A stretch of DNA of 32,000 bases, taken from positions 2,040,001 through 2,072,000 of the forward strand of contig NC_013849.1 in the NCBI RefSeq assembly GCF_000025505.1, read 5' to 3'. Source of the stretch: Ferroglobus placidus DSM 10642 (GTDB lineage: Archaea > Halobacteriota > Archaeoglobi > Archaeoglobales > Archaeoglobaceae). Made by a program: the position numbers and the translations under genes. Every line of letters starts with the position of its first letter. The stretch's first letter is position 1. This document shows, piece by piece, positions 11,726 to 26,827 of the stretch. The notes below the pieces were generated by a model. The model was given only the letters and a program-made list of their open reading frames with translations, ran no database searches and was not told the DNA's origin.

Positions 11726-11975
11726 TACCTTTTGCAAATGCGATATCCTCCTCAAGTTCCTTTATCGTGTAATGTCTTTCAACTTTCCTTCTGGCGAGCT
11801 CCTCTATGAACTCCCACTTGCTCATCTCAGCAAGCTTCCTTGCCTTGCCCATGGATAGGATTCCTCTCTGGTAGAGGGCTATTGCCAGCTCTACTTTTAA
11901 AAACCTCTCTTTGTCTTTCTCAGGTAGCTTCATCGAAGCCAGCACGTCATCCGGAATGATTATCATTGCACCCAC
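11718..11975 (-). CDS. UPF0175-family antitoxin
   Basis: 85 aa (or from the ATG at 11966). ...ELAIALYQRGILSMGKARKLAEMSKWEFIEELARRKV matches the UPF0175/COG2886 pattern. It sits directly upstream of the DUF3368 gene. Confidence 0.7.
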   Translation of the reverse strand: MGAMIIIPDDVLASMKLPEKDKERFLKVELAIALYQRGILSMGKARKLAEMSKWEFIEELARRKVERHYTIKELEEDIAFAKGSE

Positions 11976-12569: not shown

Positions 12570-13838
12570 ATGAAGATATCCATAATCGGTTCTGGATACG
12601 TTGGGTTGGTTACTGGCGTCGGATTTGCTGAACTCGGTCATGATGTTGTTTTCATAGATGTTGATGAGCAAAAGGTCGAGATGATCAATTCTTGCAAGCC
12701 ACCAATTTTTGAGAAAGGGCTGAAAGAGCTCATGGAAAAGAATAGGGGGAAATTTTACGCAACTAATGATTACGCATCTCTCAAGAATACTGATATAACG
12801 TTCATCTGTGTAGGAACCCCATCGAGAAAAGATGGTTCAATAGATTTGAAATACGTTGAATCTGCTTCTAAGGAGATAGGAAAGGTTTTGAGAGGTAAAG
12901 AAGAGTTTCATACGGTTGTCGTCAAAAGCACAGTTATTCCGGGAACTACTGAGGAAGTTGTAAAGCCAATAATTGGAAAAGAATCTGGCAAAGAAGCATT
13001 CAGAGATTTTGGATTGGCTATGAATCCAGAATTTTTAAGGGAGGGTAACGCAGTTGAAGACTTCTTCAATCCGGATAGGATAGTTATTGGAGTTAAGGAT
13101 GAAAGAACAAAGAAAATCCTTGAGAAGCTTTACGAACCCTTCAATTGTCCGAAACTTATCACGGACATAAAGACCGCTGAGATGATAAAGTACGCATCCA
13201 ATGCATTTCTAGCTACGAAAATTAGCTTCGCCAACGAGATAGGGAATATATGCAAGAAGCTTGGGATCGACGTTTACAAGGTGTTCGAGGGCGTTGGATT
13301 GGATCACAGGATAAATCCCTCATTCTTTAGAGCTGGGATCGGATTTGGAGGGAGCTGTTTTCCTAAAGACGTTAAGGCGTTGATCAAGAAGGCTGAAGAA
13401 CTCGGTGAGGACCCGAAGCTACTGAAAGCTGTTATCGAAGTAAATGAGAGACAGCCGTTGAAGATGATAGAGCTTTTAAAGAAGCACATTCCCAACTTAG
13501 AAGGAAAGAAGATAGGTTTGTTAGGTCTGGCGTTTAAGCCTGATACGGATGACGTAAGAGAGAGTAGAGCTATACCGATCGTTAAAGCTTTGCTGGAAGA
13601 GGGGGCAGAGATTATAGCCTACGATCCGAAAGCTATTGAGAACTTCAGGAAATTTTTCCCTCAAATAGAATATGCTAACTCAGCTGAAGATGTTATTGCA
13701 AAATCAGATGCAGTGTTGATAGTAACGGAGTGGAGGGACTTTGAAGAGCTCGATTACAGCGGTAAAATTGTTATCGATGGAAGAAGAGTTGAGAAGGCTA
13801 TGAGGGAAGCTAAGATATACGAAGGGGTGTGTTGGTAA
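12570..13838 (+). CDS. ugd: UDP-glucose 6-dehydrogenase
   Basis: 422 aa. N-terminal MKISIIGSGYVGLVTG and the catalytic GGSCFPKD motif. Confidence 0.9.
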   Translation: MKISIIGSGYVGLVTGVGFAELGHDVVFIDVDEQKVEMINSCKPPIFEKGLKELMEKNRGKFYATNDYASLKNTDITFICVGTPSRKDGSIDLKYVESASKEIGKVLRGKEEFHTVVVKSTVIPGTTEEVVKPIIGKESGKEAFRDFGLAMNPEFLREGNAVEDFFNPDRIVIGVKDERTKKILEKLYEPFNCPKLITDIKTAEMIKYASNAFLATKISFANEIGNICKKLGIDVYKVFEGVGLDHRINPSFFRAGIGFGGSCFPKDVKALIKKAEELGEDPKLLKAVIEVNERQPLKMIELLKKHIPNLEGKKIGLLGLAFKPDTDDVRESRAIPIVKALLEEGAEIIAYDPKAIENFRKFFPQIEYANSAEDVIAKSDAVLIVTEWRDFEELDYSGKIVIDGRRVEKAMREAKIYEGVCW

Positions 13839-13870
13839 ACTATTTTAAATTCGAACTTCAGAGTAAGTTC

Positions 13871-14098
13871 ATGCCAAAAGTTATAGAGGTGATATACGAG
13901 AACGGAGTATTCAAACCTCTTGAGAAGGTTGACCTGCCGCAAGGGGTAAAGGTTAGAATAGAAATCAAAGAGGAACCCGGTAGAATTACCGAGGAATTTA
14001 TCAACGAATTGGAGAAAATTGTGAATACCTTGCCGAAAGTGAAGGTCGATTTCAGAAAGCTTGACGAAATGTATTATGAAGGAAAAATGCTTTATTGA
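13871..14098 (+). CDS. DUF104-type antitoxin
   Basis: MPKVIEVIYENGVFKPLEKVDLPQGVKVRIEIKEE is the DUF104 signature. The ATG at 13871 is preferred over the track start at 13829. It overlaps the downstream PIN gene. Confidence 0.7.
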   Translation: MPKVIEVIYENGVFKPLEKVDLPQGVKVRIEIKEEPGRITEEFINELEKIVNTLPKVKVDFRKLDEMYYEGKMLY

Positions 14099-14537
14099 TA
14101 CGACAGTAATTCTCAAGGTAATTCTGGAAAGTGACGTTGAAATCTTGAGAAATTTATCCGAATATTACGTATGCACATCTGTAAACGTTCTCGAAGAGGC
14201 TACATTCAAAATAATAGTTAGCAGTGTTCTCGAAACGATGAGTGTTGAAGGAGCTAGTATTTATAAAATCAAAGACGAGTTTGAAAAAGGAACTGGCAGA
14301 GATTTAATTTTAAAGAGGTTGCACGCCTTAAATTTCTTGAAGAACAATCTTGTCGTTCTTCCCATCGACGACAAAATCTTCGAATCGTCAAAAGAGATGA
14401 TTAAAAAGTATAATCTTTTGCCGAATGATGCTTTAATCGTTGCTACTTGTAAGTATTACGGGATTAGGAAGATCGCTACATTTGATGAGGATTTTAGGAG
14501 GGTTGACTTCTTGGAGATTTTAGGTGATGAAATATGA
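14076..14537 (+). CDS. vapC: PIN-domain ribonuclease toxin (VapC-like)
   Basis: N-terminal CFIDTTVIL and C-terminal ATFDEDF acidic motifs. Its stop overlaps the galU ATG (ATGA at 14534..14537). Confidence 0.8.
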   Translation: MKEKCFIDTTVILKVILESDVEILRNLSEYYVCTSVNVLEEATFKIIVSSVLETMSVEGASIYKIKDEFEKGTGRDLILKRLHALNFLKNNLVVLPIDDKIFESSKEMIKKYNLLPNDALIVATCKYYGIRKIATFDEDFRRVDFLEILGDEI

Positions 14538-15370
14538 AGGTCAGGAAGGCTGTGATTCCAGCTGCAGGATATGGAACCAGGATGCTTCCGATTACTAAAG
14601 CCCAGCCCAAGGAGATGGTGCCGGTAGTCCACAAGCCAGTGATCCAATACGTTGTCGAGGAGGCTTATCATTCCGGCATAAGAGAGATTCTGATAATAAC
14701 GGGTAAGCATAAGAGGGCTATCGAGGATCACTTTGATAGAAGCGATTTAACCAAGAAAGATAAGTACACGGAAGAGCTCGATAGAATTTTGGAAGAGGTG
14801 AACATATTCTTCGTGAGGCAGAGAGAGCAGAAGGGGTTGGGAGATGCTGTAAGGTATGCTGAGGCTTTTGTTGACGATGAGCCTTTTGCTTTGTTGTTGG
14901 GAGATAACATTACGATTCCTCCCTGCACGAAGATGTTGATCGATGCTTTCGAGAAATATAAATTTACGGTAATCGCCTTGGAAAGAGTTCCTTTGGAAAG
15001 AGTTTCCTTTCACGGGATAGTTAAGGGTTCAGAAGTCGAAAAAGGTGTTTACAAACTCGAAGATCTAATTGAAAAGCCGAAGATTGAAGAAGCACCATCA
15101 AACCTCGCCGTAATCGGAAGGTATATACTTGTTCCAGAGATTTTTGATTATTTGAAGGATTTGAAGCCCGGATACGGTGGAGAGATTCAGCTCACAGACG
15201 CTTTAAGACATATGTGCAGAGATTTCGACGTTTACGGAATTCTGTATGATGGAAAGAGATACGACATCGGAAACAAGCTGGAGTGGTTGAAGGCTAACAT
15301 TGAGCTGGCTTTGAAGGATGAAGAGCTGGGGGAAGAGTTTAAAAGATGGTTAATTAAGCTGAGAATATGA
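14534..15370 (+). CDS. galU: UTP--glucose-1-phosphate uridylyltransferase
   Basis: 278 aa. KAVIPAAGYGTRMLPITKAQPKEMVPV N-terminal signature and GalU-like length. Confidence 0.9.
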   Translation: MKVRKAVIPAAGYGTRMLPITKAQPKEMVPVVHKPVIQYVVEEAYHSGIREILIITGKHKRAIEDHFDRSDLTKKDKYTEELDRILEEVNIFFVRQREQKGLGDAVRYAEAFVDDEPFALLLGDNITIPPCTKMLIDAFEKYKFTVIALERVPLERVSFHGIVKGSEVEKGVYKLEDLIEKPKIEEAPSNLAVIGRYILVPEIFDYLKDLKPGYGGEIQLTDALRHMCRDFDVYGILYDGKRYDIGNKLEWLKANIELALKDEELGEEFKRWLIKLRI

Positions 15371-15993
15371 CTTTTAGACCTCAAGTACCAAAGGAACATT
15401 ATTTCAAAGGATACGATACAAAAGAGAGATGGATCAGTTACTGGTATCAGATAAACGAAGTTCTAAAAACCAATCCAGAGACAGTTTTGGAAGTAGGAAT
15501 AGGAAATAAAACTGTAAGTGACTATCTGAAAAAATTAGGTATATGTGTTACGACAGTAGATATCGACGAGGATTTAGAACCAGATTATGTATGTAGCGTT
15601 ACGGAACTTAGCAAATACTTTGAAGAGAATTCTTTTGATACTGTCCTGTGTGCCGAAGTTTTAGAGCATATGCCGTTCGAATATTTTGAAACGGCTTTAG
15701 AAGAGTTGTGGAAAGTTTCGAAAAAGTATATAATTTTATCTTTGCCGCATTTTGGGCTGGGATTTAATTTAAGCTTAAAAATTCCTCTATTGAGGCGAAT
15801 AAACCTTACAATTAAAGTTCCTTTGCCACTTAAACATAAATTCGATGGACAGCATTACTGGGAAATAGGAAAGAAAGGATATCCTCTGAGAAAAATCAAA
15901 ACAGTGTTATCAAGAAAGTATTACATAGAAAGGACATATCTGGTTCCAGAAAATCCATACCATAGATTTTTCATATTGAAAAAGAGAAACTGA
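15367..15993 (+). CDS. Class I SAM-dependent methyltransferase
   Basis: 208 aa. Motif I VLEVGIGNKT and the downstream acidic loop TVDID, then VLCAEVLEHM. ATGA overlap with galU. Confidence 0.8.
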   Translation: MTFRPQVPKEHYFKGYDTKERWISYWYQINEVLKTNPETVLEVGIGNKTVSDYLKKLGICVTTVDIDEDLEPDYVCSVTELSKYFEENSFDTVLCAEVLEHMPFEYFETALEELWKVSKKYIILSLPHFGLGFNLSLKIPLLRRINLTIKVPLPLKHKFDGQHYWEIGKKGYPLRKIKTVLSRKYYIERTYLVPENPYHRFFILKKRN

Positions 15994-16010
15994 AAATTTA
16001 TGCGAATAAT

Positions 16011-17192
16011 TTATGCAAGTTTTCTATATATTGTATAATATTTTTCACCAATCTTATTCCAGTCATAATTCATTTCTACTTTTTCTCTTGCTTTGATTGC
16101 TATTTTGTAAGTTAGTTTATCATCACTGAATAAATTCAAGACTCTATCGGCGATTGCTTCAGGATCTCTCGGCGGAATTAAAAATCCTGTTTTTCGATCA
16201 TCAATCATTTCATCAGCTCCAACTGCTGCATCAGTAGCAACAAGGGGTATTCCGCTAGCCATAGCTTCTAACCTTACTGGTGAGAAGCTCTCAGATAAAG
16301 AAGGATGCACAAAAACTCTACACCTTTTGTAAAATTCGATAATTTTCATTTTTGGAATGTGTCCATGAAACTTAACATTTGCTTCAATACCAAGTTTTCT
16401 AACTAGTGCTTCAAGATATTCTCTTCGTGGGCCATCGCCCAATATGTGTAATCTAGCAGTTGGATATTCTTTTAAAATATGCGGCATAGCTTTTATGAGG
16501 TATTCAAAACCCTTTCTCTTTATTAATGCTCCAACAGAAAGTATTTCAAAATTTAATGGAGGTAACGAAAATATAAACTCATCTAAATTTACGCCTATTG
16601 GTATTACTTTAATTCTATTCCTATCACCGATAATTTCACCATAAATTTTCCTCGTAGTATTATTTACTGCAATTATGATGTCTGCCTTGTCTAAAGTTTC
16701 CCTAAAAGCGAAATCAATGACATGTGATCCTAATTTTCTACATAGCTTGACTATATAGTACTCCAAACAAATAAGATCGTGTTTTCTGCCACTCCAGATA
16801 ATGTAATCGTCATAAAAAAATAAATGCTTCGCTTGGACTGGTCCAACTACATACGGATAGTCTCTAACGGCATTCATTAATGCGGATAAGTTATATCCAC
16901 CGTAAGGTAGGTTGAAGCTATGAACTATAGAAACTTTTTTTTGTTCTAAAAATTTTTTAACTGCTCTAAGCAATTTAATTTGGAAGAATATCCTATCGAT
17001 TGTTCTATGGTTTGATGTTAATTTTATAAAAGTAACGTTTTTTAAATCGAGCTTTGCGAAAATATCATTCACAATTGCATAAAATTTAACATCATAGTTC
17101 TGCAAATGCCTGAGAATATTGTAGCTTTTCGCATAGCCATACGTTACCAGATTGAAGTCTGCTGGAGCAGCAAGTACGGTTATCATCTGCAT
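16011..17192 (-). CDS. Glycosyltransferase, GT-B fold (group 1 / GT4-like)
   Basis: 393 aa. C-terminal FVHPSLSESFSPVRLEAMASGIPLVATD, an EX7E-type motif. Very AT-rich gene. Confidence 0.85.
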   Translation of the reverse strand: MQMITVLAAPADFNLVTYGYAKSYNILRHLQNYDVKFYAIVNDIFAKLDLKNVTFIKLTSNHRTIDRIFFQIKLLRAVKKFLEQKKVSIVHSFNLPYGGYNLSALMNAVRDYPYVVGPVQAKHLFFYDDYIIWSGRKHDLICLEYYIVKLCRKLGSHVIDFAFRETLDKADIIIAVNNTTRKIYGEIIGDRNRIKVIPIGVNLDEFIFSLPPLNFEILSVGALIKRKGFEYLIKAMPHILKEYPTARLHILGDGPRREYLEALVRKLGIEANVKFHGHIPKMKIIEFYKRCRVFVHPSLSESFSPVRLEAMASGIPLVATDAAVGADEMIDDRKTGFLIPPRDPEAIADRVLNLFSDDKLTYKIAIKAREKVEMNYDWNKIGEKYYTIYRKLA

Positions 17193-17431
17193 CAGGTACT
17201 CAAAAATTGATTTAAAAATTTTCTACCTTATTTTAAAATTATGCAGAGTTCTACTCATTTTGCTCTGTTTCTTGCTAAGCTCTTTTTTAGCCGTATTATC
17301 TATTCTGCTTGCTATTATATTGAATTTGGTGTCGATTCTTTTAGGCCAGATTATGCGTCACGTGATAGTTTCCTACTCTGAAGCTGAATTCCGCTGGTGC
17401 TACTAAAACTTGCATCGAAAGTTAGAAAAAT

Positions 17432-18139
17432 CTAATGGTTTAATTTCTTTTCTGCTACAACGATCATATCCCACTTAGTCATTTTTCCGAAAAGACCTGA
17501 TTTATCTGCAAGCTTATCTAAAAAGAAATAAAATTGATCTGGTAGGGGTAAGTAGGGATTAAAGGCAATATAATCCAAAAGTATTACATTAAAACCCACG
17601 TTTTTCAAGATGTTAATTAGCTCGTTGGATGTATATTCTCTCAAATGCTCGTCTGTAGGTCCGGGAACGTAACGCTTCCCTTTAATTTTGCTTATTAATG
17701 ATCGGGGCAGAGCTGTAAATCTGCTTCTGTTTGGCGTAGTGAGGAGAAGAATTCCACCGGGTTTAAGGACTCTGTAACATTCTCTTATAAACTGCTCACC
17801 CTCAATAAAATGTTCTATGACCTCGGTTGATATAATTAAGTCAAACGATTCATCTTTGAGAGAAAGGTTTCTCGCATCAGCTTTGAGAAAATGAATGTTC
17901 TGGGAAACTACCACACTTGGCGTTTTAAGAGCGATATCTAATCCCACGACAAAAGGCTTTTTCATTTCTCTTAATGCAGTTTTATAATAATAATCTGTAA
18001 AACGACCGTCATTACAGCCGACATCTAAAATAGCTATTGTTTTATGATTTGAGAAAGGATGTCGTAAAATCCAGCTCAGTACCCTAAAAACAGTTTTCCT
18101 TTTTTTGTTCCAAGCGTATTTCACTTTGTTGCTCTTCAT
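17432..18139 (-). CDS. Class I SAM-dependent methyltransferase
   Basis: 235 aa. Motif I ILDVGCNDGRF, then DLIISTEVIEHF and VLKPGGILLLTTPN. Confidence 0.85.
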   Translation of the reverse strand: MKSNKVKYAWNKKRKTVFRVLSWILRHPFSNHKTIAILDVGCNDGRFTDYYYKTALREMKKPFVVGLDIALKTPSVVVSQNIHFLKADARNLSLKDESFDLIISTEVIEHFIEGEQFIRECYRVLKPGGILLLTTPNRSRFTALPRSLISKIKGKRYVPGPTDEHLREYTSNELINILKNVGFNVILLDYIAFNPYLPLPDQFYFFLDKLADKSGLFGKMTKWDMIVVAEKKLNH

Positions 18140-18351
18140 AATTTCCCCATCTTTTTCAGCTTTTCTATATGACTTCTTATTTTTTCTTTTTCATCTTCAG
18201 CTTTTATCTCTTTTCTTTCGCCTTTTTCGATTTCGAGCCACGGAACTTTAATTAACGCTGGAATGTGAATAAACGGAGGGTGCTCGTAGATTCTTATCGG
18301 AAATTGATAAGTGGACTCTCCGAAAGCTTCACTATTAAATTTTAGCTGGTG
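18139..18351 (-). pseudogene. Startless 71-codon open frame coupled to the methyltransferase start (probable 3' remnant of a lost gene)
   Basis: The stop-to-stop frame ...YEHPPFIHIPALIKVPWLEIEKGERKEIKAEDEKEKIRSHIEKLKKMGKL* has no ATG, GTG or TTG except near its end. Its TGA (18136..18138) overlaps the methyltransferase ATG (ATGA). Family not recognised. Confidence 0.3.
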
Positions 18352-18396
18352 CTATGAGTACCTGCAACACAGTAATTATTGGGACAGACCGCATAG

Positions 18397-18405
18397 TTTT
18401 TAAAA
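18397..18405 (+). promoter_or_regulatory. TATA-box candidate for the rml operon
   Basis: tttttaaaa is centred about 27 nt upstream of the rmlA ATG (18428) with no obvious RBS. This fits a leaderless archaeal transcript. Confidence 0.35.
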
Positions 18406-18427
18406 TCTTATTCACAAGATAACACCA

Positions 18428-19483
18428 ATGAAAGCCCTAATTCTTTCTGGCGGGCATGGAACTCGGTTGAGACCTTTAACCTACTCTCAACAGAAACAGC
18501 TCATACCTGTTGCAAACAAGCCGGTTTTATTTTATGCTATAGAGGATGTTATAGAAGCCGGTGTTAAGGAAATTGGGATTATAACCGGTCCGAATCGAGA
18601 GCAGGTTATTGAAACTGTCAACTCAGTTGATTGGGATGCTGAAATTACTTTCATTCATCAAGGAGATCCGAAAGGCTTGGCACATGCGATTCTTGTGGCT
18701 GAGGAATTCCTCGATAACGAAGAATTCGTAATGTATCTTGGTGATAATATCCTTAGAGATGGTATTGTTGATCATGCTAACAAGTTCAAGGAATTGAATC
18801 CGGACGCACTCATACTACTTACAGAGGTTGAAGAACCTCAACGCTTTGGAGTTGCTGAATTAGATGAAAACGGCAGAGTGAAGAGGTTAATAGAAAAGCC
18901 AAGAGTACCGCCATCTAACTATGCATTGGTTGGTGTTTACTTTTTTAAGCCCATAATTATAGAAGCTTGCAAAAATATCAAACCCTCTTGGAGGAACGAG
19001 CTTGAGATTACAGATGCAATTCAATGGCTTATCGACAACGGTTACAGGATTGAAGCATCTATTGTTACAGGATGGTGGAAAGACACTGGTAAGCCGGAGG
19101 ATATTTTAGAAGCTAACAGGCTCGTTTTGGATGAAATTGATGCAAAATGCGAAGGAATTTTGGAGAACTCGAAAGTTGTTGGAAGGGTTGTGATCGAGAA
19201 GAATTGTGTTGTTAAAAACTCAATAATAAAAGGTCCTTGCGTTATCGGGAAGAATTGCGTAATAGAAAACTCCTATATAGGACCTTACACATCCATAGGA
19301 GATAACTGCAAAATCGTGGAAACTGAGATTGAGGACAGCGTTATTATGGAGGGTAGTGAGATAATAAATGCTGGAAGAATTGTAGAGAGTTTAATAGGCA
19401 GAAATGTCGTAATTCGAAAGGGAGATTCGAAGCCGAGTGGTCAGAGATTCGTTGTGGGAGATAGCTCGCAAATAGTGTTGTGA
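18428..19483 (+). CDS. rmlA: Glucose-1-phosphate thymidylyltransferase, long form (with C-terminal hexapeptide domain)
   Basis: 351 aa. LSGGHGTRLRPLTYSQQKQLIPV signature and a beta-helix C-terminus. First gene of the rmlA-B-D-C series. Confidence 0.9.
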   Translation: MKALILSGGHGTRLRPLTYSQQKQLIPVANKPVLFYAIEDVIEAGVKEIGIITGPNREQVIETVNSVDWDAEITFIHQGDPKGLAHAILVAEEFLDNEEFVMYLGDNILRDGIVDHANKFKELNPDALILLTEVEEPQRFGVAELDENGRVKRLIEKPRVPPSNYALVGVYFFKPIIIEACKNIKPSWRNELEITDAIQWLIDNGYRIEASIVTGWWKDTGKPEDILEANRLVLDEIDAKCEGILENSKVVGRVVIEKNCVVKNSIIKGPCVIGKNCVIENSYIGPYTSIGDNCKIVETEIEDSVIMEGSEIINAGRIVESLIGRNVVIRKGDSKPSGQRFVVGDSSQIVL

Positions 19484-19487
19484 TAAC

Positions 19488-19995
19488 ATGAAAGTGCTAG
19501 TTACAGGAGGTCTGGGCTTCATAGGGAGTAACTTCGTAAGGTATATCTTAGAGAGGTATTCGGATGTTGAAGTTATTAACGTGGATGCAATGAAATACGG
19601 ATCGAATCCAGCAAATCTCAAAGATGTCGAGAACGACGAGAGGTATTCCTTCATTAAAGGCGATATATCTGATTATAAACTTATGTCTAAACTCGTAAGA
19701 GATGTAGACATTGTAATAAATTTCGCAGCGGAGACACATGTTGATAGGAGCATATCCAACCCGCAATCTTTTTTACAAAGTAACGTTGTTGGAATTTTTA
19801 CAATACTCGAAGCTTTGAGAAGGGAAAATCCTGAAGCTAAATTAGTTCACATCTCTACGGATGAAGTATACGGGGATATTTTAAACGGATCTTTCAGGGA
19901 AGATGATAGATTGAAACCTTCTTCACCGTATTCAGCGAGTAAGGCAGCTGCGGATATGTTTGTTCTTGCTTATGTAAGAACTTATGGCTTGCACG
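19488..19995 (+). pseudogene. rmlB: dTDP-glucose 4,6-dehydratase, 5' part (interrupted by the IS)
   Basis: MKVLVTGGLGFIGSNF..., the catalytic YSASKAA, then ...RTYGLH. After that the frame runs into IS sequence. It joins in frame with 21219..21712. Confidence 0.9.
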
Positions 19996-20009
19996 ACTTT
20001 GGGACAAAA

Positions 20010-20978
20010 TTACCTCATCACCCTCACAGCAAATATGTTGTGCCAAAGCCCGACAGCAAACAAAGCCATCTCTCTCCTGTCCTCCCTCCTCTGCCTTATC
20101 AACCATCCAAATCTCCTCTTATCAGCAGAAAATCCTGCCTCACTTAAGTTCCTCTTGAAGTACCTCTTCAGAAACCTATAAGGAGCTTCAACAATCCTCT
20201 CGATAACCCTCAACCAGTCAAATCCTATTCTGGCAAGATTTCGCTTTGGAATGACGTAGACAGCTGTCTCAGCATCAAACAGCCTCAGAGTCTTCCTACT
20301 GCTGTAATACTTATCCAGAGAAATCGAGTTTACCTTCACCCCCATGCTTTTGAGCATTCCTAAAGCCTTCTCAAAGGCATCTTTCTCAGATCTGTCAGAA
20401 TAGCCAAAGCCAACGTACATTCCCGTATCGATGTCAATTATCCTGAAAACGTATCTGAAGTCTTTACCTTTCCTTTTTAGATTGCTTCTATAGTGCTTAG
20501 TGATGGTTAGGCTGTATCCTGTCCCATCTCCTGAAAAATCTCCTGAAACTCCTTCCTCTCTAAGCAGAAGGATGAAGAGGTTGTGTAAAGCCATTCTAAC
20601 TTCTTCATCCGAGTATAATCTTTCTATCGTTTTGTAGCTAACCTTTATCCCGAATAAAGGTTCAAACAGCTCTAAAAGCTCCTCAATATCTCTGTTTGAT
20701 TTGTCCATCAGCCTTGCAAACAGAAAGAGCATAACTCTCTTCTCCAGATCAACTTTCTTTGGTCTTCCCACCCTCTTTTGCACGGTTATCACAGAAATAG
20801 CCTCTCTAACGTATTCAGGGAGTTTTCTCAGCCTTTCCTTAACAACTTCTCTCTTCCTCTCCCATTCTGTGTACGGATACTTTTCCTTCTCCTCCTGTCT
20901 TATCTCCTCTGCAATTTCATCCAAAACATCCAGAAGTTCCCTTACAAACTTCCCTGTCACTCTGAATCCAAGGTTCAT
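20010..20978 (-). CDS. IS transposase (ISA1214-like)
   Basis: 322-aa ORF that fills the element. It sits between the IRs and is unrelated to the rml context. Confidence 0.85.
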   Translation of the reverse strand: MNLGFRVTGKFVRELLDVLDEIAEEIRQEEKEKYPYTEWERKREVVKERLRKLPEYVREAISVITVQKRVGRPKKVDLEKRVMLFLFARLMDKSNRDIEELLELFEPLFGIKVSYKTIERLYSDEEVRMALHNLFILLLREEGVSGDFSGDGTGYSLTITKHYRSNLKRKGKDFRYVFRIIDIDTGMYVGFGYSDRSEKDAFEKALGMLKSMGVKVNSISLDKYYSSRKTLRLFDAETAVYVIPKRNLARIGFDWLRVIERIVEAPYRFLKRYFKRNLSEAGFSADKRRFGWLIRQRREDRREMALFAVGLWHNIFAVRVMR

Positions 20979-21029
20979 GTTCTGATTCCAACCAAAAAGT
21001 ATTTAAGTATTTCTATGGATATACTTAAC

Positions 21030-21188
21030 ATGAGGAGGGTTGAAGTGAAGAAGGGAGATTTTGTTCTGAAAGAGGAGGTTGAGGTTGTTTTCGAGAAGAG
21101 AGTCACGCCTTTCGGTAATTCAGCAAAGGTTGATGTGCCCAAGAGGTATATTGGGTGGAGAGCGTATGTGATTGTTGTCAGGGATTAA
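21030..21188 (+). CDS. Small transposon-encoded protein (DUF2080-like)
   Basis: MRRVEVKKGDFVLKEEVEVVFEKRVTPFGNSAKVDVPKRYIGWRAYVIVV. The TPFGNS...VPK..IG pattern matches the archaeal transposon-associated DUF2080 family as I remember it. An alternative ATG lies at 21015. Divergent from the transposase. Confidence 0.65.
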   Translation: MRRVEVKKGDFVLKEEVEVVFEKRVTPFGNSAKVDVPKRYIGWRAYVIVVRD

Positions 21189-21208
21189 AGGAATTTTGTC
21201 CCAAAACC

Positions 21209-21712
21209 GGCTTGCACGCTATGATTACAAGGTGCACGAATAACTATGGACCCTATCAGTTCCCGGAGAAGCTGATTCCTAAGACAATTATCAGAGCATC
21301 GATGGGTCTAAAAGTGCCCATTTACGGGACTGGCAAGAACGTTAGAGATTGGATCTACGTTTTGGATCACTGCGAAGCAATAAATTTAGTGATGAGGGAA
21401 GGAGAGAAAGGTGAGATCTACAACATCTCAAGCGGGGAGGAGAAAACTAATTTAGAAGTCGTGAAAACAATTCTCGATCTCATGGGCAAGGATGATAGCT
21501 TAATCGAGTTCGTTGAAGACAGACCAGGACACGATATGAGGTATAGCTTAGATTCCTCAAAAATCAGAGAAGAATTAGGTTGGAAACCCAAGCACAGCTT
21601 TGAGGAAGGGATAAGGGAAACTGTGAAATGGTATCTGCAGAATGAGTGGTGGTGGAAACCTTTAGCTGACGAAAGAGTGTTGCATCCGACTCCTTGGAAG
21701 CTAAGGTGGTAA
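21209..21712 (+). pseudogene. rmlB: dTDP-glucose 4,6-dehydratase, 3' part
   Basis: Reads GLHAMITRCTNNYGPYQFPEKLIPK...DRPGHDMRY... Removing the IS plus one repeat copy gives an uninterrupted 1002-nt (334-codon) reading frame. Confidence 0.9.
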
Positions 21713-21744
21713 TGTTTAAAAAGTGTCATTTCAAACATATCACC

Positions 21745-21990
21745 ATGGTATCTGATGTGGAAATAATTAAAGATTTGGATAAACAGGGTAGGTTGGTATT
21801 GCCAAAGGAATGGAGGGAAAAATACGCTAAGAGGGGGAAAGTAATTCTGAAAGTAGAGAACGACACTATCGTAATAAAGCCGTATAAATTAGCGGATCTA
21901 ACGGAATTCTTCGATAAAATTGAGGTTGACATTAAGTCCGATCTATCTGACTGGAAATCTGTAAGGAGGGAGCTACTTGAGGTTCGTTGA
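21745..21990 (+). CDS. vapB: AbrB/SpoVT-type antitoxin (VapB-like)
   Basis: MVSDVEIIKDLDKQGRLVLPKEWREKY...IVIKP is the swapped-hairpin motif. Overlaps the downstream PIN gene. Alternative start at 21712. Confidence 0.75.
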   Translation: MVSDVEIIKDLDKQGRLVLPKEWREKYAKRGKVILKVENDTIVIKPYKLADLTEFFDKIEVDIKSDLSDWKSVRRELLEVR

Positions 21991-22393
21991 TGCAAGCGTT
22001 TTTGTTCACGCATATCTTAAGCCGAAAAGAAAACTTAAGCCTAATGAAGTTAAGGTGAAGGAATCTGCCAAAGAGATCGTGAAGAGAATCAACGATGGTG
22101 AAGAAGTCGGTATAACTGTCGTGCAGATAACTGAGATAGCAAACCTGTTGGAGAGTTATTTACCTCTTAGCGAGGCTCTGAAGGTTGAGGAGTTTCTTCT
22201 ATTAGCTGGAAACGTGAAGGTTTTTGATGTTACGAAGAAAGATTGTTTGAAAGCTGTGAAGATAGCCAAGGAGAAAGATGTTGGATTGAGCGATGCGATA
22301 GCTTACGTGGTAATGAAGAAAAACAGCGTTGGGGAGATATATTCGTTCGATACCGATTTCGACAAGCTTGATGTGACAAGGGTTACAGAGTGA
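21977..22393 (+). CDS. vapC: PIN-domain toxin (VapC)
   Basis: 138 aa. N-terminal RFVDASVFV, then ...LSDAIAYV... and a C-terminal SFDTDF motif. TTG start. Confidence 0.8.
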   Translation: MRFVDASVFVHAYLKPKRKLKPNEVKVKESAKEIVKRINDGEEVGITVVQITEIANLLESYLPLSEALKVEEFLLLAGNVKVFDVTKKDCLKAVKIAKEKDVGLSDAIAYVVMKKNSVGEIYSFDTDFDKLDVTRVTE

Positions 22394-22397
22394 TAAC

Positions 22398-23270
22398 ATG
22401 AGAATTTTCATCACTGGGGGAAGCGGTCTTTTGGGAAGCAAATTGGCTGAGATAGCTTTGGAAAAGGGGTATGAAGTTTATTCTGGTTACAACAGTCATA
22501 AGCCCGAGTTTGGTAAGCCGGTTAAGTTTGACTTAGCTAATTCAGATAGTGTTGTAAGAGCTATTAGCGAAGTTAAGCCAGATGTGATTGTCCACTCTGC
22601 AGCACTTACAGATGTTGACAGGTGCGAAGTTGAGAAAGATCTAGCCTATAAGATAAACGTTGAAGGAACTAAGATCGTTGCTGAAATGGCAAGAAAGGTT
22701 GGAGCTTACATGGTTTACATCTCAACGGATTACGTTTTCGATGGAGAGAGGGGGATGTACAAGGAGGAAGATGAAACCCATCCCATTAACTATTACGGCT
22801 ACACGAAGCTGTTAGGAGAGAAATACTGTCGGGATTTCTGCATTGCAAGAACTTGCGTTATATACGGAGCGAAACCGGCAAGCGGTAAGGTTAACTTCGC
22901 TTTGTGGTTGATTAACAAGCTCGAGAACGGAGAAAGCGTTAAAATCGTTACTGATCAGTTTATTACTCCTACTTTAAACACCAACCTTGCTAAGATGGTT
23001 TTTGAATGTGCAGAACGGAAGCTAAAAGGAGTTTTCCATTTAGCTGGAGCAACGAGAGTTTCGAGGTTCGAATTCGCTAAAGAAATTGCAAGAGTCTTTG
23101 GATTGGATGATAGTTTGATTACTCCATCAAGAATGGACGAAATAAACTGGATCGCTAAAAGACCAAGGGATTCGTCTCTCGATACTTCTAAAGCTCGGAA
23201 TTTGCTCGATGAAAAACCTTACGAGTTGAGAAAAGCTTTAAAGACTCTTAAAGATGAGATTGAGGTGTAA
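22398..23270 (+). CDS. rmlD: dTDP-4-dehydrorhamnose reductase
   Basis: 290 aa. MRIFITGGSGLLGSKL, STDYVFDG and YGYTKLLGE (the YxxxK motif). Confidence 0.9.
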   Translation: MRIFITGGSGLLGSKLAEIALEKGYEVYSGYNSHKPEFGKPVKFDLANSDSVVRAISEVKPDVIVHSAALTDVDRCEVEKDLAYKINVEGTKIVAEMARKVGAYMVYISTDYVFDGERGMYKEEDETHPINYYGYTKLLGEKYCRDFCIARTCVIYGAKPASGKVNFALWLINKLENGESVKIVTDQFITPTLNTNLAKMVFECAERKLKGVFHLAGATRVSRFEFAKEIARVFGLDDSLITPSRMDEINWIAKRPRDSSLDTSKARNLLDEKPYELRKALKTLKDEIEV

Positions 23271-23272
23271 CT

Positions 23273-23389
23273 ATGCTTCCCGGCATAGTTATCAAGCCCT
23301 TAAAGAGGTTTGCAGATGAGAGGGGATTTTTCACCGAAATAATGCGTAAGGACTGGGACATCTTAAAAAGCAAACCCAAATGTTTTTAA
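23273..23389 (+). pseudogene. Duplicated 5' end of rmlC (38-codon stub)
   Basis: MLPGIVIKPLKRFADERGFFTEIMRKDW..., then unrelated sequence and a stop. Positions 23301..23356 are identical to 24036..24091. The first 28 nt differ from the real rmlC at 8 positions, mostly synonymous. Confidence 0.8.
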
Positions 23390-23392
23390 GAT
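23360..23392 (+). promoter_or_regulatory. Perfect 10-bp inverted repeat at the left edge of the inserted cassette (operator or hairpin candidate)
   Basis: atcttaaaaa (23360..23369) and tttttaagat (23383..23392) are separated by a 13-nt loop. The repeat lies about 20 nt upstream of the ATG at 23412, and the right arm resembles a TATA box. Confidence 0.35.
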
Positions 23393-23411
23393 TTAGGATG
23401 GAGAAGAAATT

Positions 23412-23660
23412 ATGATTTCGATAAGAAGAGAAGTTCATGAAGAGATTTTGAAAAGACTTCTCACTGAGCTTGAATATTACGAGGCTATTATCGCTAAATT
23501 TGAGAAAAAATACAAATGCTCTTTAGATGAGCTAGAAAGAAAAATTGAAAGAGAAGGTGTGCCTTTAGACAACCACGAAATTTGGGAAGATAGTATAGAA
23601 TGGAGAAATGCCGTTGAAGAGGTAGAAAGACTAAAGAAGCTCATAGAAGAGTTAAAATGA
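23412..23660 (+). CDS. 82-aa coiled-coil protein, putative partner or antitoxin of the downstream gene
   Basis: Charged, helical sequence. ATGA overlap with the next ORF. Family not recognised. Confidence 0.55.
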   Translation: MISIRREVHEEILKRLLTELEYYEAIIAKFEKKYKCSLDELERKIEREGVPLDNHEIWEDSIEWRNAVEEVERLKKLIEELK

Positions 23661-23995
23661 CTGAAATCCTTAAAAAAGTCGCAAAGAAGTTGCTGGATTA
23701 CGACATCGTATTAAAAGTGGAATTTTTGGGGACAAAGGTCAGGGCTTATTTGGTTAATGGATACGTTCTTGATGTATATTATAACCAAACGCTTGGAAAA
23801 TATAGCTACACACTAATAAGAGAGAACAGGAGAATAATTGGATGGGATAACGCACCGCACCACGTATCTGTAAGAACACATCCAGACCATTTTCATGACG
23901 TAGATGGAAAAATTAAGCCATCGTATTTGTCTGGAAATCCTCTGAAAGATTTGAATGAAGTCCTAAATGTTATTAGGAATGTGTTATTGGATTGA
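23657..23995 (+). CDS. DUF6516 / TumE-like putative toxin
   Basis: 112 aa. IGWDNAPHHVSVRTHPDHFHD resembles the (Y/W)DNAPHH...FPHHKH signature of the TumE/DUF6516 family as I remember it. Its last codons and stop lie inside the duplicated rmlD 3' sequence gattgaggtg. Confidence 0.6.
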   Translation: MTEILKKVAKKLLDYDIVLKVEFLGTKVRAYLVNGYVLDVYYNQTLGKYSYTLIRENRRIIGWDNAPHHVSVRTHPDHFHDVDGKIKPSYLSGNPLKDLNEVLNVIRNVLLD

Positions 23996-24007
23996 GGTGG
24001 TGTAATC

Positions 24008-24508
24008 ATGCTCCCTGGTATAGTTGTTAAACCTCTAAAGAGGTTTGCAGATGAGAGGGGATTTTTCACCGAAATAATGCGTAAGGACTGGAGTGATATT
24101 TTCAAAGATGAGATAGTTCAGGCGAATCTGTCAATTACCTATCCAGGGATCGTTAGAGCCTGGCACAAACACGAGAGGGGACAAGTTGATTACTTTGTCT
24201 GCATTAAAGGAGCAATCAAAATTTGTGTCTACGATGAAAAAACTCAGGAGTTAGCTGAAATTATTTCCACTGGAGATAATCCTCAAGTTGTCAGAGTTCC
24301 CGGGCACTACTGGCATGGGTTTAAAGCTATCGGCGTTGAGCCAGCGATGTTGGTCTATTTCGTGAGTAGGTTGTATGATTACGAGAACCCTGACGAAGTG
24401 CGGAGACCTTGGAACGATCCTACAGTAGTTCCAAAGATAATAAATGGTAGAACTGACGATCCCCGCTGTAACAAGCCGTGGGACTGGTTCTACCCACCAT
24501 ATAAATAA
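24008..24508 (+). CDS. rmlC: dTDP-4-dehydrorhamnose 3,5-epimerase family (cupin)
   Basis: 166 aa. FADERGFFTE, WHKHERGQVDYF..., and the rml context. Confidence 0.8.
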   Translation: MLPGIVVKPLKRFADERGFFTEIMRKDWSDIFKDEIVQANLSITYPGIVRAWHKHERGQVDYFVCIKGAIKICVYDEKTQELAEIISTGDNPQVVRVPGHYWHGFKAIGVEPAMLVYFVSRLYDYENPDEVRRPWNDPTVVPKIINGRTDDPRCNKPWDWFYPPYK

Positions 24509-24601
24509 AATAGTTTGAAATGTTTATAAAAAATTTTATAAAATGGAGATGAGGGTAATGCCTCAGTAATGTTTATATTCAATTAGTTGGATAAATCGGT
24601 G

Positions 24602-24886
24602 ATGATGTGTCCGCATTGCAAATCGATAAAAACTGTGAAAATGGGCTGTTATTACACGAAATCTGGTGAGAGGAGGCAGAGATACAAATGCAAGAGCTGC
24701 GGGAGAACTTTCGTTTTGAATCCGATAAAGCCGAGGAATTATCCCGAGGAATTTAAGGAGATGGTAGTTAGAGCTGTTGTGAAGGAGGGTGTAGGGATAA
24801 GACAAGCGAGCAGAATTTTCAAGCTTTCTCCTAACACTGTGACAGCTTGGGTAAGAGAATTTTCTAAAAAAAGACCTGAGAAATGA
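24602..24886 (+). CDS. IS1 InsA-like zinc-finger/HTH protein (orfA)
   Basis: MMCPHCKS...YKCKSCGRTF zinc finger followed by an HTH region (GIRQASRIFKLSPNTVTAWV). A GGTGAT sits immediately upstream of the ATG. Confidence 0.75.
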   Translation: MMCPHCKSIKTVKMGCYYTKSGERRQRYKCKSCGRTFVLNPIKPRNYPEEFKEMVVRAVVKEGVGIRQASRIFKLSPNTVTAWVREFSKKRPEK

Positions 24887-25301
24887 GATTAGATCGGAAA
24901 AGCCTGTTATCGAGTTAGATGAAGCTTGGAGTTTTGTTAAGAAAAAGGAAAACGAAATCTGGATTTGGATTGCTTTAGAGAGAAATTCCCGAAAAATAAT
25001 AAGTTATGCAATAGGAGATCGTTCTGTGGATACTTTCAAGAAATTGTGGGACGGAATTGGCGATGAAATAAAGCGGAAAGCAATTTTCTACACGGATCGC
25101 TGGGACGCTTATAATTTGATTCCTTACAGGCAGAGAATCGTAAGAAGAGGAGGAACGAACCACGTTGAAAGGTTATTCTTAACTCTGAGAAATGATAATC
25201 CGAGATTCGCAAGAAAATCAATCAGATTCTCAAAATCCTCGGAAATGCTCGAAAATTCTTTTAAATTGTGGATTCATTACTATAATTTATCAACATTATA
25301 G
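24855..25301 (+). CDS. IS1 InsB-like DDE catalytic part (orfB), no start of its own, +1 frame relative to orfA
   Basis: The frame is open from 24855: ...ELDEAWSFVKKKENEIWIWIALERNSRKIISYAIGDRS...FYTDRWDAY...NHVERLF..., the IS1 DDE motifs. It overlaps orfA across the A7 run at 24866..24872. Confidence 0.7.
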   Translation, partial: ENFLKKDLRNEIRSEKPVIELDEAWSFVKKKENEIWIWIALERNSRKIISYAIGDRSVDTFKKLWDGIGDEIKRKAIFYTDRWDAYNLIPYRQRIVRRGGTNHVERLFLTLRNDNPRFARKSIRFSKSSEMLENSFKLWIHYYNLSTL

Positions 25302-25387: not shown

Positions 25388-26827
25388 CTATATTTTTTTC
25401 ATCATCTTTAATTCACTTATTTTTTGGCTGATTAATATTTTCTCTTCTTTGCTCCTTAGGTCGCTTAGCCAAGCAAATAATCTTTCTTTGAGATCTTTAA
25501 CAATTTCGGGTCTATCTTCAACAATATTCTGAACTTCCTTTGGATCACTCTTTAGGTGATAAAGTTCTTCAATCCCTCCGTGAATTACACCACAATATCT
25601 ACATGTCGCAGCTTCTTTTGAGGGAGAATATATATACTTCCATTTTTTAGTTCTGATAGCCATTTTCCTTTCAGTATAAGACTCTTCAGCAACTATGAAA
25701 GAGCGAGGAGAGTTTGTTTCTCCACTCATTACTGGAACTAAAGATTCACCGTCAAATTCAGATCTATTAAACGGGATATTTAAAACATCTAAGATAGTAG
25801 GTACAACATCAACATGTTGAACAAAATCTTTAATCCTCTTTCGCTCAAAATCGAGTGGTATATTACTGAAAATTAAAGGAACATGTATGGACACATCATA
25901 CAAACCATGGTGATCAAAAAAATCCCATGTTCTGTTAAACTTTCTCCATGATCAGAGGTTATTACAAAAATTGTATTATCATAAATCCTCTTATCTTTGA
26001 GAAAATCTATTAATCTTCCAATCTCTTGATCAACATATCTTATTGCTGAATCGTACATTGCAATCACTTCTTCAGCAGTTGTTTGCTCCCCAAAAGCCTT
26101 CAGTAAATAGTCTTTCCACTCTTTATTGTTTATATTTGTGAGCAATTCTTTTAATTCTTTACTCTTCCCTTTTCTCTTGGGTTTAAATTCAGTATAAATA
26201 TCTTCTGGAGCACTATAAGGTGTGTGTATCCCAATAATGTATGAAAAGAAAGAAAGGTTTATCACAGTTACTAATGAGTTTTAATGCTGTATCAGTTAAT
26301 TCAGTTGCAGCATAAGTAGATGGCAAAATATTCTTATTTCTAATCTTTTTAATGAGTTCCGTAACTTTACCTGAAAAAGTTTTAGGAAATCGGCTTATAA
26401 TTTTTGAAAATACTACAGATAATGTTGAATGCTTTTTCTGTATAGTATCTCCAAAATAATATTCAAACCCTTTTTTGTGCCATCTGCCAAGCCAGTCTAT
26501 TCCAAAGGTGATATAACCGTTGTCTCTTAATATTTCTGACAAAAACCTAATTTTTCGTTTATAGAACTCCTGAATCATAGAATTTGTAACTTTTGAGCCA
26601 TGATTTCTTATACCGTGAGATATTGGATATTTACCCGAAAGTATTGTGGTAACTGAAGGATCTGTAGCATTAGCACAACTAAAAGCATTTTCGAATAAAA
26701 CACCTTCATTGACCAACTTATCTATGTTGGGGCTGGTCTTTTTTGTGTAACCATAACAGCCTAAATGGTCTGCTCTAAGAGCATCTATTATTATCATGAC
26801 AACATTACTTTTTATCATTAACATCAC
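25388..26827 (-). pseudogene. Sulfatase-like alkaline-phosphatase-superfamily enzyme, broken by two frameshifts
   Basis: Three consecutive ORFs (26213..26827, 25873..26265, 25388..25903) join to form one sulfatase-fold protein: IIIDALRADHLGCYG..., HYWDTHT|PYSAPE, SDHGESLTEHGIF|(F)DHHGLYDVSIHVPLIF, ELYHLKSDPKEVQN. Confidence 0.8.

Follow-up and report, generated by a model that had tools for sequence, protein, structure and literature searches.

Toxin-antitoxin cassettes at gene junctions of nucleotide-sugar operons in Ferroglobus placidus and related archaea

We analysed a 32,000-nt stretch of the genome of Ferroglobus placidus DSM 10642 (contig NC_013849.1, positions 2,040,001 to 2,072,000; hereafter the window, numbered from its first nucleotide), in which three toxin-antitoxin (TA) type gene pairs lie in-line between genes for sugar-nucleotide synthesis. 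The flanking genes were assigned by Pfam as ugd, galU, rmlA, rmlB, rmlD, and rmlC. An earlier note, made from the sequence alone, had described the layouts ugd-[DUF104+PIN]-galU, rmlB-[AbrB+PIN]-rmlD, and rmlD-[82 aa+TumE-like]-rmlC, with the pairs co-directional with the biosynthetic genes. Domain searches and the sequence bear out all three layouts and the orientation (3/3 pairs), except that what was taken as the rmlB gene is really a 3' fragment, rmlB being split by an IS5-type element. The note's "roughly ten" TA-type genes or remnants come to nine by our count: the six genes of the three pairs, a UPF0175 antitoxin gene (11718-11975, minus strand; Pfam) and a truncated PIN/DUF3368-like toxin remnant (11513-11755, minus strand), both upstream of ugd, and an ORF with a PIN_2 domain at the edge of the window (31641-31949, minus strand; Pfam PF10130, E = 1.6e-20). 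A search of Rfam across the window returned no RNA families. All features below are on the plus strand unless marked otherwise.

The first pair lies between ugd, encoding UDP-glucose 6-dehydrogenase (12570-13838; Pfam, and so named in F. placidus record ADC66499), and galU, encoding UTP-glucose-1-phosphate uridylyltransferase (14534-15370; Pfam). ugd is the first gene of its own operon, and a TTTTTAAA box ends 23 nt upstream of its ATG. Past the end of ugd, a TATA-like box, TTTTAAAT (13843-13850), the putative cassette promoter, lies 20 nt before the ATG of a 75-aa AF2212-like/DUF104 antitoxin (13871-14098; Pfam PF01954, E = 1e-16). The antitoxin reading frame overlaps by 23 nt that of a 153-aa PIN-domain VapC-type toxin, PIN1 (14076-14537; Pfam PF01850, E = 1e-18), in which the acidic residues are conserved. 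As had been claimed, the PIN1 stop overlaps the galU ATG (ATGA, 14534-14537), and the galU ribosome-binding site, GGTGA, falls within the 3' end of PIN1.

The other two pairs are in the rml operon, whose first gene encodes an rmlA-type glucose-1-phosphate thymidylyltransferase (18428-19483; Pfam) and is also preceded by the TTTTTAAA box, ending 23 nt before the ATG. Pfam matches and the insertion boundaries delimit an rmlB 5' fragment (19488-19995; pseudogene half) and an rmlB 3' fragment (21209-21712). The intervening IS5-type insertion sequence (19996-21208, minus strand, 1213 bp; Pfam/NCBIfam, terminal repeats) has 14-nt perfect terminal inverted repeats, a 10-nt target duplication (GGCTTGCACG), an IS5-type transposase gene (20010-20978, minus strand), and a DUF2080 accessory ORF on the plus strand; its insertion is recent. 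We note that this element had been overlooked, as had the rmlC stub and the TATA-like box of each antitoxin gene described below. A sulfatase gene near the rml operon is frameshifted.

Downstream of the rmlB 3' fragment, a TATA-like box, TTTAAAAA (21715-21722), lies 22 nt before an ATG at 21745 and inside an inverted repeat, ATGTTTAAAA/TTTCAAACAT (21712-21738), which together form a candidate promoter and operator. This ATG begins an 81-aa AbrB/SpoVT-type (MazE-like) antitoxin (21745-21990; Pfam E = 3.5e-5, NCBIfam AbrB E = 5.6e-6). An in-frame ATG at 21712 was ruled out as the start, the homologues being 81 aa long and the extension not conserved. The antitoxin gene overlaps by 14 nt that of a 138-aa PIN-domain VapC-type toxin with a TTG start, PIN2 (21977-22393; Pfam PF01850, E = 1.8e-13). 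Of the acidic residues, D5, D106, and D125 do not vary across 10 sequences, and E42 hardly varies. The four nucleotides noted earlier (TAAC) separate the PIN2 stop from the ATG of rmlD, encoding dTDP-4-dehydrorhamnose reductase (22398-23270; Pfam).

The 141 nt between rmlD and the third pair hold an rmlC 5' stub (pseudo-fragment from 23273), part of the left copy of a 93-nt direct repeat (23264-23356) that includes the original rmlD-rmlC junction. The right copy (23999-24091) is 89% identical, and most of it is the first ~84 nt of rmlC (24008-24508; dTDP-4-dehydrorhamnose 3,5-epimerase family, Pfam). A TATA-like box, TTTTTAAG (23383-23390), is found 21 nt before the ATG of an 82-aa putative TumA-type antitoxin, p82 (23412-23660), whose family was assigned through near-identical relatives with a precomputed PF27273 MJ0235 match. 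The p82 stop overlaps the start of a 112-aa TumE/DUF6516 toxin (ATGA, 23657-23660), which extends from 23657 to 23995 (Pfam PF20126, E = 8.6e-15; 54.9 bits versus a cutoff of 23.4) and ends twelve nucleotides before the rmlC ATG. The window pairs are predicted to be type II systems, two of VapBC type and one of TumA/TumE type.

Related loci, designated by L numbers, help to delimit the third cassette. p82-TumE is kept as a unit in L004 and L085-L089, and p82 is 87-90% identical in L004 and L085; the TTTTTAAG box is its left edge, common to these two loci, and TTTTTAAGATTTA is the left edge across three differing upstream contexts. Because L085 and L087 have the same stub-to-promoter joint, preceded there by a TumE 3' remnant, we favour, as the probable origin of the 93-nt repeat, a tandem duplication in an ancestor and later recombination with an empty allele. 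The same evidence led us to drop homology-facilitated illegitimate recombination of a donor fragment.

The description of the pairs as having almost no spacer holds on their 3' sides, where the distance from toxin end to following start codon is -4 (PIN1-galU), 4 (PIN2-rmlD), and 12 nt (TumE-rmlC), but not on their 5' sides, where spacers of 32, 32, and 141 nt (DUF104+PIN, AbrB+PIN, and p82+TumE) each carry a TATA-like box. In a local TATA-box distance test, such a box was present at 3/3 antitoxin starts (20-22 nt before the ATG) versus 0/6 toxin or downstream starts, with a background of 2.9% of positions and 5.7% of ATGs. This test replaced a scan for bacterial sigma-70 promoters and hairpin terminators, whose counts equalled those of shuffled sequences and which is irrelevant to an archaeal host. 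Boxes of this type also precede ugd, rmlA, and orf339 at the same spacing. Since the antitoxin boxes resemble those of the operon-first genes ugd and rmlA, each antitoxin likely has its own promoter, and all three pairs appear to combine this with a leaderless antitoxin start. The box also accompanies the cassette between loci: TTTTAAAT and its spacer are identical in L081, and GTTAAATAAT is kept in all AbrB-PIN2 loci with differing spacers. The premise that the pairs lack promoters of their own is therefore probably wrong. An own promoter does not appear to be universal among cassettes: the spacers of the L003-type DUF104-PIN and L033 MNT-HEPN cassettes lack a TATA box, and both cassettes look fully operonised.

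No hairpin terminator flanks the TA pairs, and an oligo-T scan found no T-runs at cassette ends, although T5 runs are equally common within genes and the scan is hence non-discriminating. Because no terminator of either kind was seen and the ribosome-binding site lies within the toxin 3' end, the downstream sugar gene is likely co-transcribed with the TA pair, as the earlier note had supposed; it would probably be transcribed by read-through from the operon promoter plus the TA promoter. In a regulatory reading, the pairs have become part of operon control: the autoregulated TA promoters serve as internal promoters for galU, rmlD, and rmlC, or toxin activation ties the supply of nucleotide sugars to growth arrest. 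Archaeal operons commonly have internal promoters, and each downstream gene is tightly coupled through its ribosome-binding site in the toxin 3' end. Of 7 intact cassettes examined, 5 have the inverted repeat across the TATA-like box and AbrB start (the junctions in L026, L027, and L031 match those of L003/L030), and with rmlB interrupted by the IS, the AbrB box is the nearest plausible rmlD promoter in this strain. Long-term selection on the TA genes also equals that on the sugar genes: at saturated dS the TA genes are under purifying selection with dN/dS of 0.04-0.11, as are the genes that flank them (for the TA genes, 0.07 versus L081 for the DUF104 antitoxin, 0.04-0.11 for AbrB, 0.05-0.08 for PIN2, and 0.075 for TumE). 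The pairs are conserved in relatives, where dN/dS is 0.04-0.24, and are not chance associations. We nevertheless consider regulatory exaptation quite unlikely, on the evidence of how these junctions vary.

We compared the junctions in about 38 related rml operon lineages, counting lineages as groups after collapsing them at 97% nucleotide identity of rmlD and excluding the window; many of the loci come from metagenome contigs, and taxonomic binning may be wrong for some (e.g., L003 as Wolframiiraptor). The rmlB|rmlD junction is empty in 21/29 groups, has a gap of >300 nt in 6/29, and carries scars in 2/29; the corresponding numbers for rmlD|rmlC are 12/26, 12/26, and 2/26. At rmlA|rmlB, a TA pair was found in one of 23 scorable groups (MNT-HEPN, L033), and three further large gaps are not evidence of TA genes, rmlC lying in between in at least L010. 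Empty junctions measure 1-2 nt (TGGTAG-T-ATG and GAGGTGTAA-CT-ATG). Likewise, ugd and galU overlap directly (TGATG) in L040 and L042, and L038 has a 2.4-kb pile of cassettes at this junction.

The cassettes found at these junctions belong to at least seven TA families (AbrB-PIN, RHH-PIN, DUF104-PIN, TumE, ParE, MazF, and MNT-HEPN). RHH-PIN occurs with a ParE-like pair in L002, DUF104-PIN in L003-type loci, MNT-HEPN in L049 and L033, and UPF0175-MazF stacked with p82-TumE in L085-L089. Some loci retain stubs of toxins or antitoxins (a PIN2 stub and AbrB pseudogene in L002, a PIN stub in L004, and DUF104 stubs in L002 and L081), which nested replacement of cassettes appears to have left, and L028, L029/L034, and L063 have deletion scars. 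The TA insertions, roughly 12 of them independent, all run in the direction of the operon, and only IS/TnpB elements are otherwise oriented. The numbers of gains and losses are uncertain, since the rmlD phylogeny is a neighbour-joining tree that was not bootstrapped. Unrelated toxin families (PIN, TumE, ParE, MazF, and HEPN) swap at one junction, many junctions are empty, cassettes decay to scars as the flanking genes stay, and the AbrB-PIN pair also persists away from any operon, all of which argues against a purpose-built regulatory circuit and against the earlier suggestion that the toxins couple growth arrest to glycan expression.

The cassettes also behave as mobile units. They are patchily present in syntenic loci, and the F. 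placidus genome carries another copy of AbrB-PIN (95% and 93% identity). In L090, an AbrB-PIN pair with its TATA-like box persists outside any operon, in a free-standing TA island with rmlB and rmlD fragments still around it. In L081, a ~140-nt ugd-DUF104 duplication flanks a UPF0175-DUF3368 insert, and identity between the window and L081 is mosaic, with 100% tracts amid 80-97% sequence. We found no recombinase near the cassettes and no shared repeats at their ends besides duplicated target gene fragments; site-specific integration, as an integron cassette or integrase-borne island, was rejected for want of a recombinase and att-like repeats. Of the three meanings proposed earlier, hitch-hikers marking recombination joints is the best supported, by junctions that are empty or hold unrelated families, stubs, or scars, by the mosaic identity, and by the rmlC stub and the L081 ugd 3' duplication, both of them scars of recombination or duplication at the edge of a cassette.

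Another of those meanings, that the cassettes are kept because post-segregational killing stabilises an exchangeable glycan block, has points in its favour. TA-type genes are dense in the window, the cassettes are old and intact, and they sit within the most conserved, horizontally shared block (rml proteins are 73-86% identical among the closer Archaeoglobi-type contigs). Their persistence fits addiction, but the operon is not protected: rmlB is disrupted by the IS, the nearby sulfatase gene is frameshifted, and L090 has an intact AbrB-PIN pair amid decayed rml genes. Many lineages have lost cassettes yet retain the operon, and the second F. placidus AbrB-PIN copy could neutralise the toxin and cancel addiction. 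We regard island-level addiction as unlikely. A defence hot spot, where the cassettes are abortive-infection-type genes and the junctions are integration hot spots of a defence or surface-variation island, strikes us as improbable. Toxin families at one site are diverse and turn over much as in defence hot spots, the island has surface-glycan functions and IS elements, and an AAA_21 ATPase adjoins several TA pairs in the L090 island. However, no link to viruses was found, and we recognised neither a recombinase nor an att site nor any other defence system in the window. Moreover, this proposal concerns the use of the cassettes to the cell and is compatible with our preferred account of their arrival.

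That account, which we think is probably correct, is that long-lived selfish TA cassettes nest at permissive junctions of a recombining nucleotide-sugar gene set in Archaeoglobi. The junctions appear to be recurrent sites of landing and turnover. A cassette would survive there only under three conditions: (i) it has the orientation of the operon, (ii) it lacks a terminator, and (iii) its toxin 3' end supplies the ribosome-binding site of the next gene. Survivors would then all be in-line and tightly abutted downstream. The first cassette would turn a junction of 1-2 nt into ~650 nt of dispensable DNA, a nest where newer cassettes insert into or replace older ones. Tandem duplication and illegitimate joins would contribute to the changes, as would internal deletion and homologous recombination with empty alleles. 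A bolder version, possible but on balance doubtful, is that the nests are self-reinforcing: the first cassette makes the junction a safe harbour, the highly conserved flanking enzyme genes provide homology arms by which cassettes pass from one lineage to another, and promoter-bearing cassettes take over downstream transcription, placing part of glycan precursor synthesis under TA autoregulation.

The window pairs do not reveal a new kind of system. Two resemble VapBC, with a small upstream antitoxin overlapping a ~140-150-aa PIN toxin with conserved acidic residues, and the F. placidus record names both as VapC family toxin and antitoxin; the difference is that these predicted toxins are wedged among biosynthetic genes, with the next start fused to the toxin stop. 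The third resembles TumE-TumA in having a DUF6516/TumE protein with a small overlapping gene upstream. Only proteobacterial subcluster 1a TumE-TumA pairs have been validated, TumA neutralising a toxin that targets translation (Durairaj et al. 2023, PMC10584680). The archaeal partner differs in being an MJ0235-family 82-aa protein with a putative antitoxin role. An MNT-HEPN module lies within the lysine operon of Thermus thermophilus HB8 and is absent in HB27 (Makarova, Wolf, and Koonin 2009, PMC2701414). That case likewise involves a two-gene TA module present or absent in an otherwise syntenic operon, but here at least seven families revisit the same junctions, with stubs, stacks, and scars, and some occupancy is ancient (saturated dS). 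In E. coli, ccdO157 is a chromosomal TA locus at a fixed intergenic site, between folA and apaH, and is decayed in some strains. It shares with our loci a conserved intergenic site with presence, absence, and decayed copies; unlike them, its site is outside an operon, does not abut the next gene translationally, and holds a single family. A literature search on TA genes with Ferroglobus, rmlD, or insertion hot spots returned nothing directly about such an arrangement. The TA families and their mobility are already known, and the junction hot-spot pattern is modestly new.

These loci provide a sequence-resolved case of TA cassettes that enter operons, persist, replace one another, and outlive the operon, a turnover that would proceed without a recombinase and without breaking host gene expression. 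If the promoter assignments hold, TA promoters drive part of the expression of the downstream sugar-activating genes, an under-appreciated route by which selfish cassettes rewire archaeal operon expression. The rml junctions would also offer a convenient natural setting in which to measure the gain and loss of TA cassettes and the competition between them. We note that toxins with a dN/dS of 0.05-0.08 at saturated divergence are more strongly conserved than pure parasitism would require, which may reflect some benefit to the host, such as defence or regulation.

An exact-sequence look-up identified the window proteins as ADC66499-ADC66514. The window is a glycan-precursor island, encoding GlmS and several sugar-1-phosphate nucleotidyltransferases, one DegT aminotransferase, two nucleotide-sugar dehydrogenases, glycosyl- and methyltransferases, and the products of rmlA, rmlB, rmlD, and rmlC. 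Three toxin-antitoxin (TA) pairs lie among these genes: (i) an AF2212-like/DUF104 antitoxin (13871-14098) and a PIN toxin (PIN1, 14076-14537), between ugd and galU; (ii) an AbrB-type antitoxin (21745-21990) and a second PIN toxin (PIN2, 21977-22393), between rmlB and rmlD; and (iii) an 82-aa putative TumA-type antitoxin (p82, 23412-23660) and a TumE/DUF6516 toxin (23657-23995), between rmlD and rmlC. Assignments are from Pfam and NCBIfam, except for p82, placed in the MJ0235 family by the precomputed annotation of near-identical relatives. The acidic PIN residues are kept in PIN1 and PIN2 alike, and the GenBank annotation already names the TA genes as such. We also observed a PIN_2 gene at the window edge, adjacent to uncharacterised ORFs of 108 and 166 aa (segments 29593-30060 and 31474-31540) that had no match in a family search, and a weak RHH_12 ORF near these segments, which are 92% identical to 9218-9683 and 9825-9890 of the related locus L081.

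The earlier note had described the pairs as wedged in line between nucleotide-sugar genes with almost no spacer. On the 3' side this is exact: the stop codon of PIN1 and the start codon of galU overlap (ATGA, 14534-14537), TAAC lies between the PIN2 stop and rmlD, and 12 nt, with GAGGTGGTG, lie between the TumE stop and rmlC. At all three pairs the ribosome-binding site of the sugar gene is in, or just past, the last toxin codons. On the 5' side the description does not hold, as the spacers are 32, 32, and 141 nt. Nor did the note mention that rmlB is interrupted by a 1213-bp IS5-type element (19996-21208) with a DUF2080 accessory ORF. Its terminal inverted repeats (14 nt) and target duplication (10 nt) are both perfect, which argues that insertion was recent; because rmlB is split, this strain probably lacks an active dTDP-rhamnose pathway, unless a second rmlB exists. 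Also unmentioned, the 141 nt past rmlD open with the original rmlD-rmlC junction and continue with an rmlC 5' stub of ~84 nt. Junction and stub together form the left copy of a 93-nt direct repeat, and the right copy, 89% identical, begins the intact rmlC. Directly 3' of rmlC, an IS1-like remnant (24587-25301; InsA-like 99 aa and a truncated DDE_Tnp_IS1 fragment) marks the end of the conserved rml block. A sulfatase/phosphoethanolamine-transferase-like gene (25388-26827, minus strand) is broken into three overlapping frames of 171, 130, and 204 aa, and a separate sulfatase C-terminal fragment at 2659-3000 (minus strand) has 76% nucleotide similarity in L081.

For ugd, rmlA, and orf339, each the first gene of its operon, TTTTTAAA ends 23-24 nt 5' of the ATG and there is no Shine-Dalgarno sequence, the pattern expected of an archaeal gene that has a TATA box and starts leaderless. 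TATA-like boxes of the same kind, at nearly the same distance from the ATG, precede the DUF104 (TTTTAAAT, 13843-13850), AbrB (TTTAAAAA, 21715-21722), and p82 (TTTTTAAG, 23383-23390) genes. In a hexamer-level test, a box stood at promoter distance at 3 of 3 antitoxin starts and at none of the 6 starts of toxin or downstream sugar genes; across the window, 2.9% of positions and 5.7% of ATGs have such a box. Related AbrB-PIN2 cassettes all have GTTAAATAAT immediately 3' of the rmlB stop, while the ~20 nt from box to ATG vary; the box is kept even in a free-standing copy with no operon upstream. Similarly, the left edge of the p82-TumE cassette is TTTTTAAGATTTA in three differing upstream contexts. 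An inverted repeat covers box and start in 5 of the 7 intact AbrB-PIN2 cassettes examined (the L026, L027, and L031 junctions equal those of L003/L030 in this comparison); in the window, the repeat ATGTTTAAAA...TTTCAAACAT is a candidate AbrB operator. Scans found no oligo-T run or hairpin terminator beside any of the three pairs. The boxes at antitoxin starts, their comparative conservation, and the lack of flanking terminators make it most likely that each of the three TA pairs has a promoter of its own and that each downstream sugar gene shares a transcript with the pair before it. Some cassettes elsewhere have no box: the DUF104-PIN pair of the L003 type and the MNT-HEPN pair of L033 begin 5-12 nt past the upstream stop codon, and only a ribosome-binding site precedes the start of at least the former. 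Within the galU coding sequence, a TATA-like TTTAAAA in the stretch 15330-15366, at promoter distance upstream of the methyltransferase gene (15367), is a possible internal promoter, or chance.

RmlD scans yielded 20 genome loci and 59 metagenome loci (L-numbers), the closer ones mostly from Archaeoglobi-type contigs. Collapsing the loci at 97% rmlD nucleotide identity gave 38 lineage groups, with the window left uncounted. Junctions were classed by gap (<=30 nt), scar (31-300 nt), or gap >300 nt. The respective counts were 19, 0, and 4 among 23 scorable groups for rmlA-rmlB; 21, 2, and 6 among 29 for rmlB-rmlD; and 12, 2, and 12 among 26 for rmlD-rmlC. One of the four long rmlA-rmlB gaps is the MNT-HEPN pair (L033 1362-2061), the sole TA occupancy identified at that junction among the 23 groups; in at least L010 the gap contains rmlC. 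Empty junctions have the sequences TGGTAG-T-ATG and GAGGTGTAA-CT-ATG. At rmlB-rmlD, AbrB-PIN2 is found in the window and in L003, L022, L023, L024, L026, L030, L031, and L041, and L002 has an AbrB pseudogene, a 40-nt PIN2 stub, and a new RHH-PIN pair. The rmlD-rmlC junction holds DUF104-PIN (L003 type), DUF104 with a PIN stub and p82-TumE (L004), a DUF104 stub with a ParE-like pair (L002), MNT-HEPN (L049), a DUF6036-like pair (L053), or a p82 pseudogene, UPF0175-MazF, a TumE 3' remnant, an rmlC stub, and p82-TumE (L085-L089). All four presence/absence combinations of these two junctions occur, and internal-deletion scars persist in L028, L029/L034, and L063. The ugd-galU junction is empty, with a TGATG overlap, in L040 and L042; in L038, AbrB, PIN remnants, and a TnpB element are piled up there over 2.4 kb; and in L081-L084 the order is ugd, a DUF104 stub, a 1.45-kb insert (UPF0175-DUF3368), a duplicated ugd 3' end, and a DUF104-PIN1-galU block 92% identical to the window. 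All TA insertions are co-directional with the operon; of the inserts, only IS/TnpB elements are not.

We found no recombinase or att-like repeat accompanying the cassettes, and the scars point to general recombination as the route of movement. The joint of stub to p82 promoter in the window is identical in L085/L087, where an L004-type TumE 3' remnant sits before the rmlC stub; together these indicate an ancestral tandem duplication of p82-TumE and the rmlC 5' end. The first ~38 nt of the window stub are unlike the true rmlC start, its last 55 nt are identical to true rmlC, and it adjoins rmlD exactly as rmlC does in empty-junction alleles, as would be expected had the first copy later been lost through recombination between this allele and an empty one. 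At rmlD-rmlC, the right end of the DUF104-PIN cassette retains the original GGAGGTGTA(A/G)CT of the rmlD 3' end while rmlD gains a new tail, and therefore the rmlC initiation region is untouched by insertion. In L090-L093 (L090 4380-5310), an AbrB-PIN2 pair with 86% nucleotide identity to that of the window lies in a free-standing TA island, still bordered by ~190 nt of degenerate sequence from the 3' part of rmlB and by 20 nt from the 5' end of rmlD; either the pair persisted after the operon was lost, or it is a copy that left the operon. The island also contains UPF0175-DUF3368, a second MazE-PIN pair, an IS240 fragment, a DUF104 remnant, and an AAA_21 ATPase. The window matches L081 as a mosaic, with 100% identical tracts amid 80-97% sequence, which shows ongoing recombination between lineages. 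Tracts of 100% at 14284-14400 (inside PIN1) and 15424-15660 (inside the methyltransferase gene) suggest recent gene conversion.

Comparison of the window with its relatives gave saturated synonymous divergence (dS of at least 1), both in the TA genes and in their flanks. dN/dS was 0.04-0.11 for AbrB, 0.05-0.08 for PIN2, 0.075 for TumE, 0.07 for DUF104, and 0.24 for PIN1, with 0.02-0.08 for the rml genes. Saturation together with low dN/dS argues that the cassettes have long resided in the operon, diverging along with it and retaining function, and are not recent debris.

VapBC and TumE-TumA are families already described (PMC10584680), and TA mobility was noted in 2009, including a module within a Thermus lysine operon (PMC2701414). 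In our literature searches we found no description of cassettes with putative promoters, from several TA families, repeatedly occupying particular operon junctions and nesting there.

The simplest account of the cassettes is neutral-to-selfish. TA cassettes would enter junctions rarely, and only insertions that are co-directional, terminator-free, and respectful of neighbouring genes would survive. Addiction, and possibly also defence benefits, would uphold intactness, and a seeded junction would offer a much larger harmless target, such that later cassettes nest inside; TA-into-TA insertions make up about half of the inferred events. Outside the window, F. placidus encodes a second AbrB+VapC pair (ADC65230/ADC65229) that shares 95% and 93% identity with the pair inside the rml operon; the AbrB of this copy (ADC65230) could cross-neutralise the embedded toxin, relaxing addiction. 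The suggestion that the toxins couple growth arrest to glycan synthesis through a dedicated link is unlikely, because unrelated families swap at one site and many related operons have no cassette. Persistence of the cassettes lends slight support to the proposal that they stabilise the island, but the operon around them is disrupted here, and L090 no longer has it.
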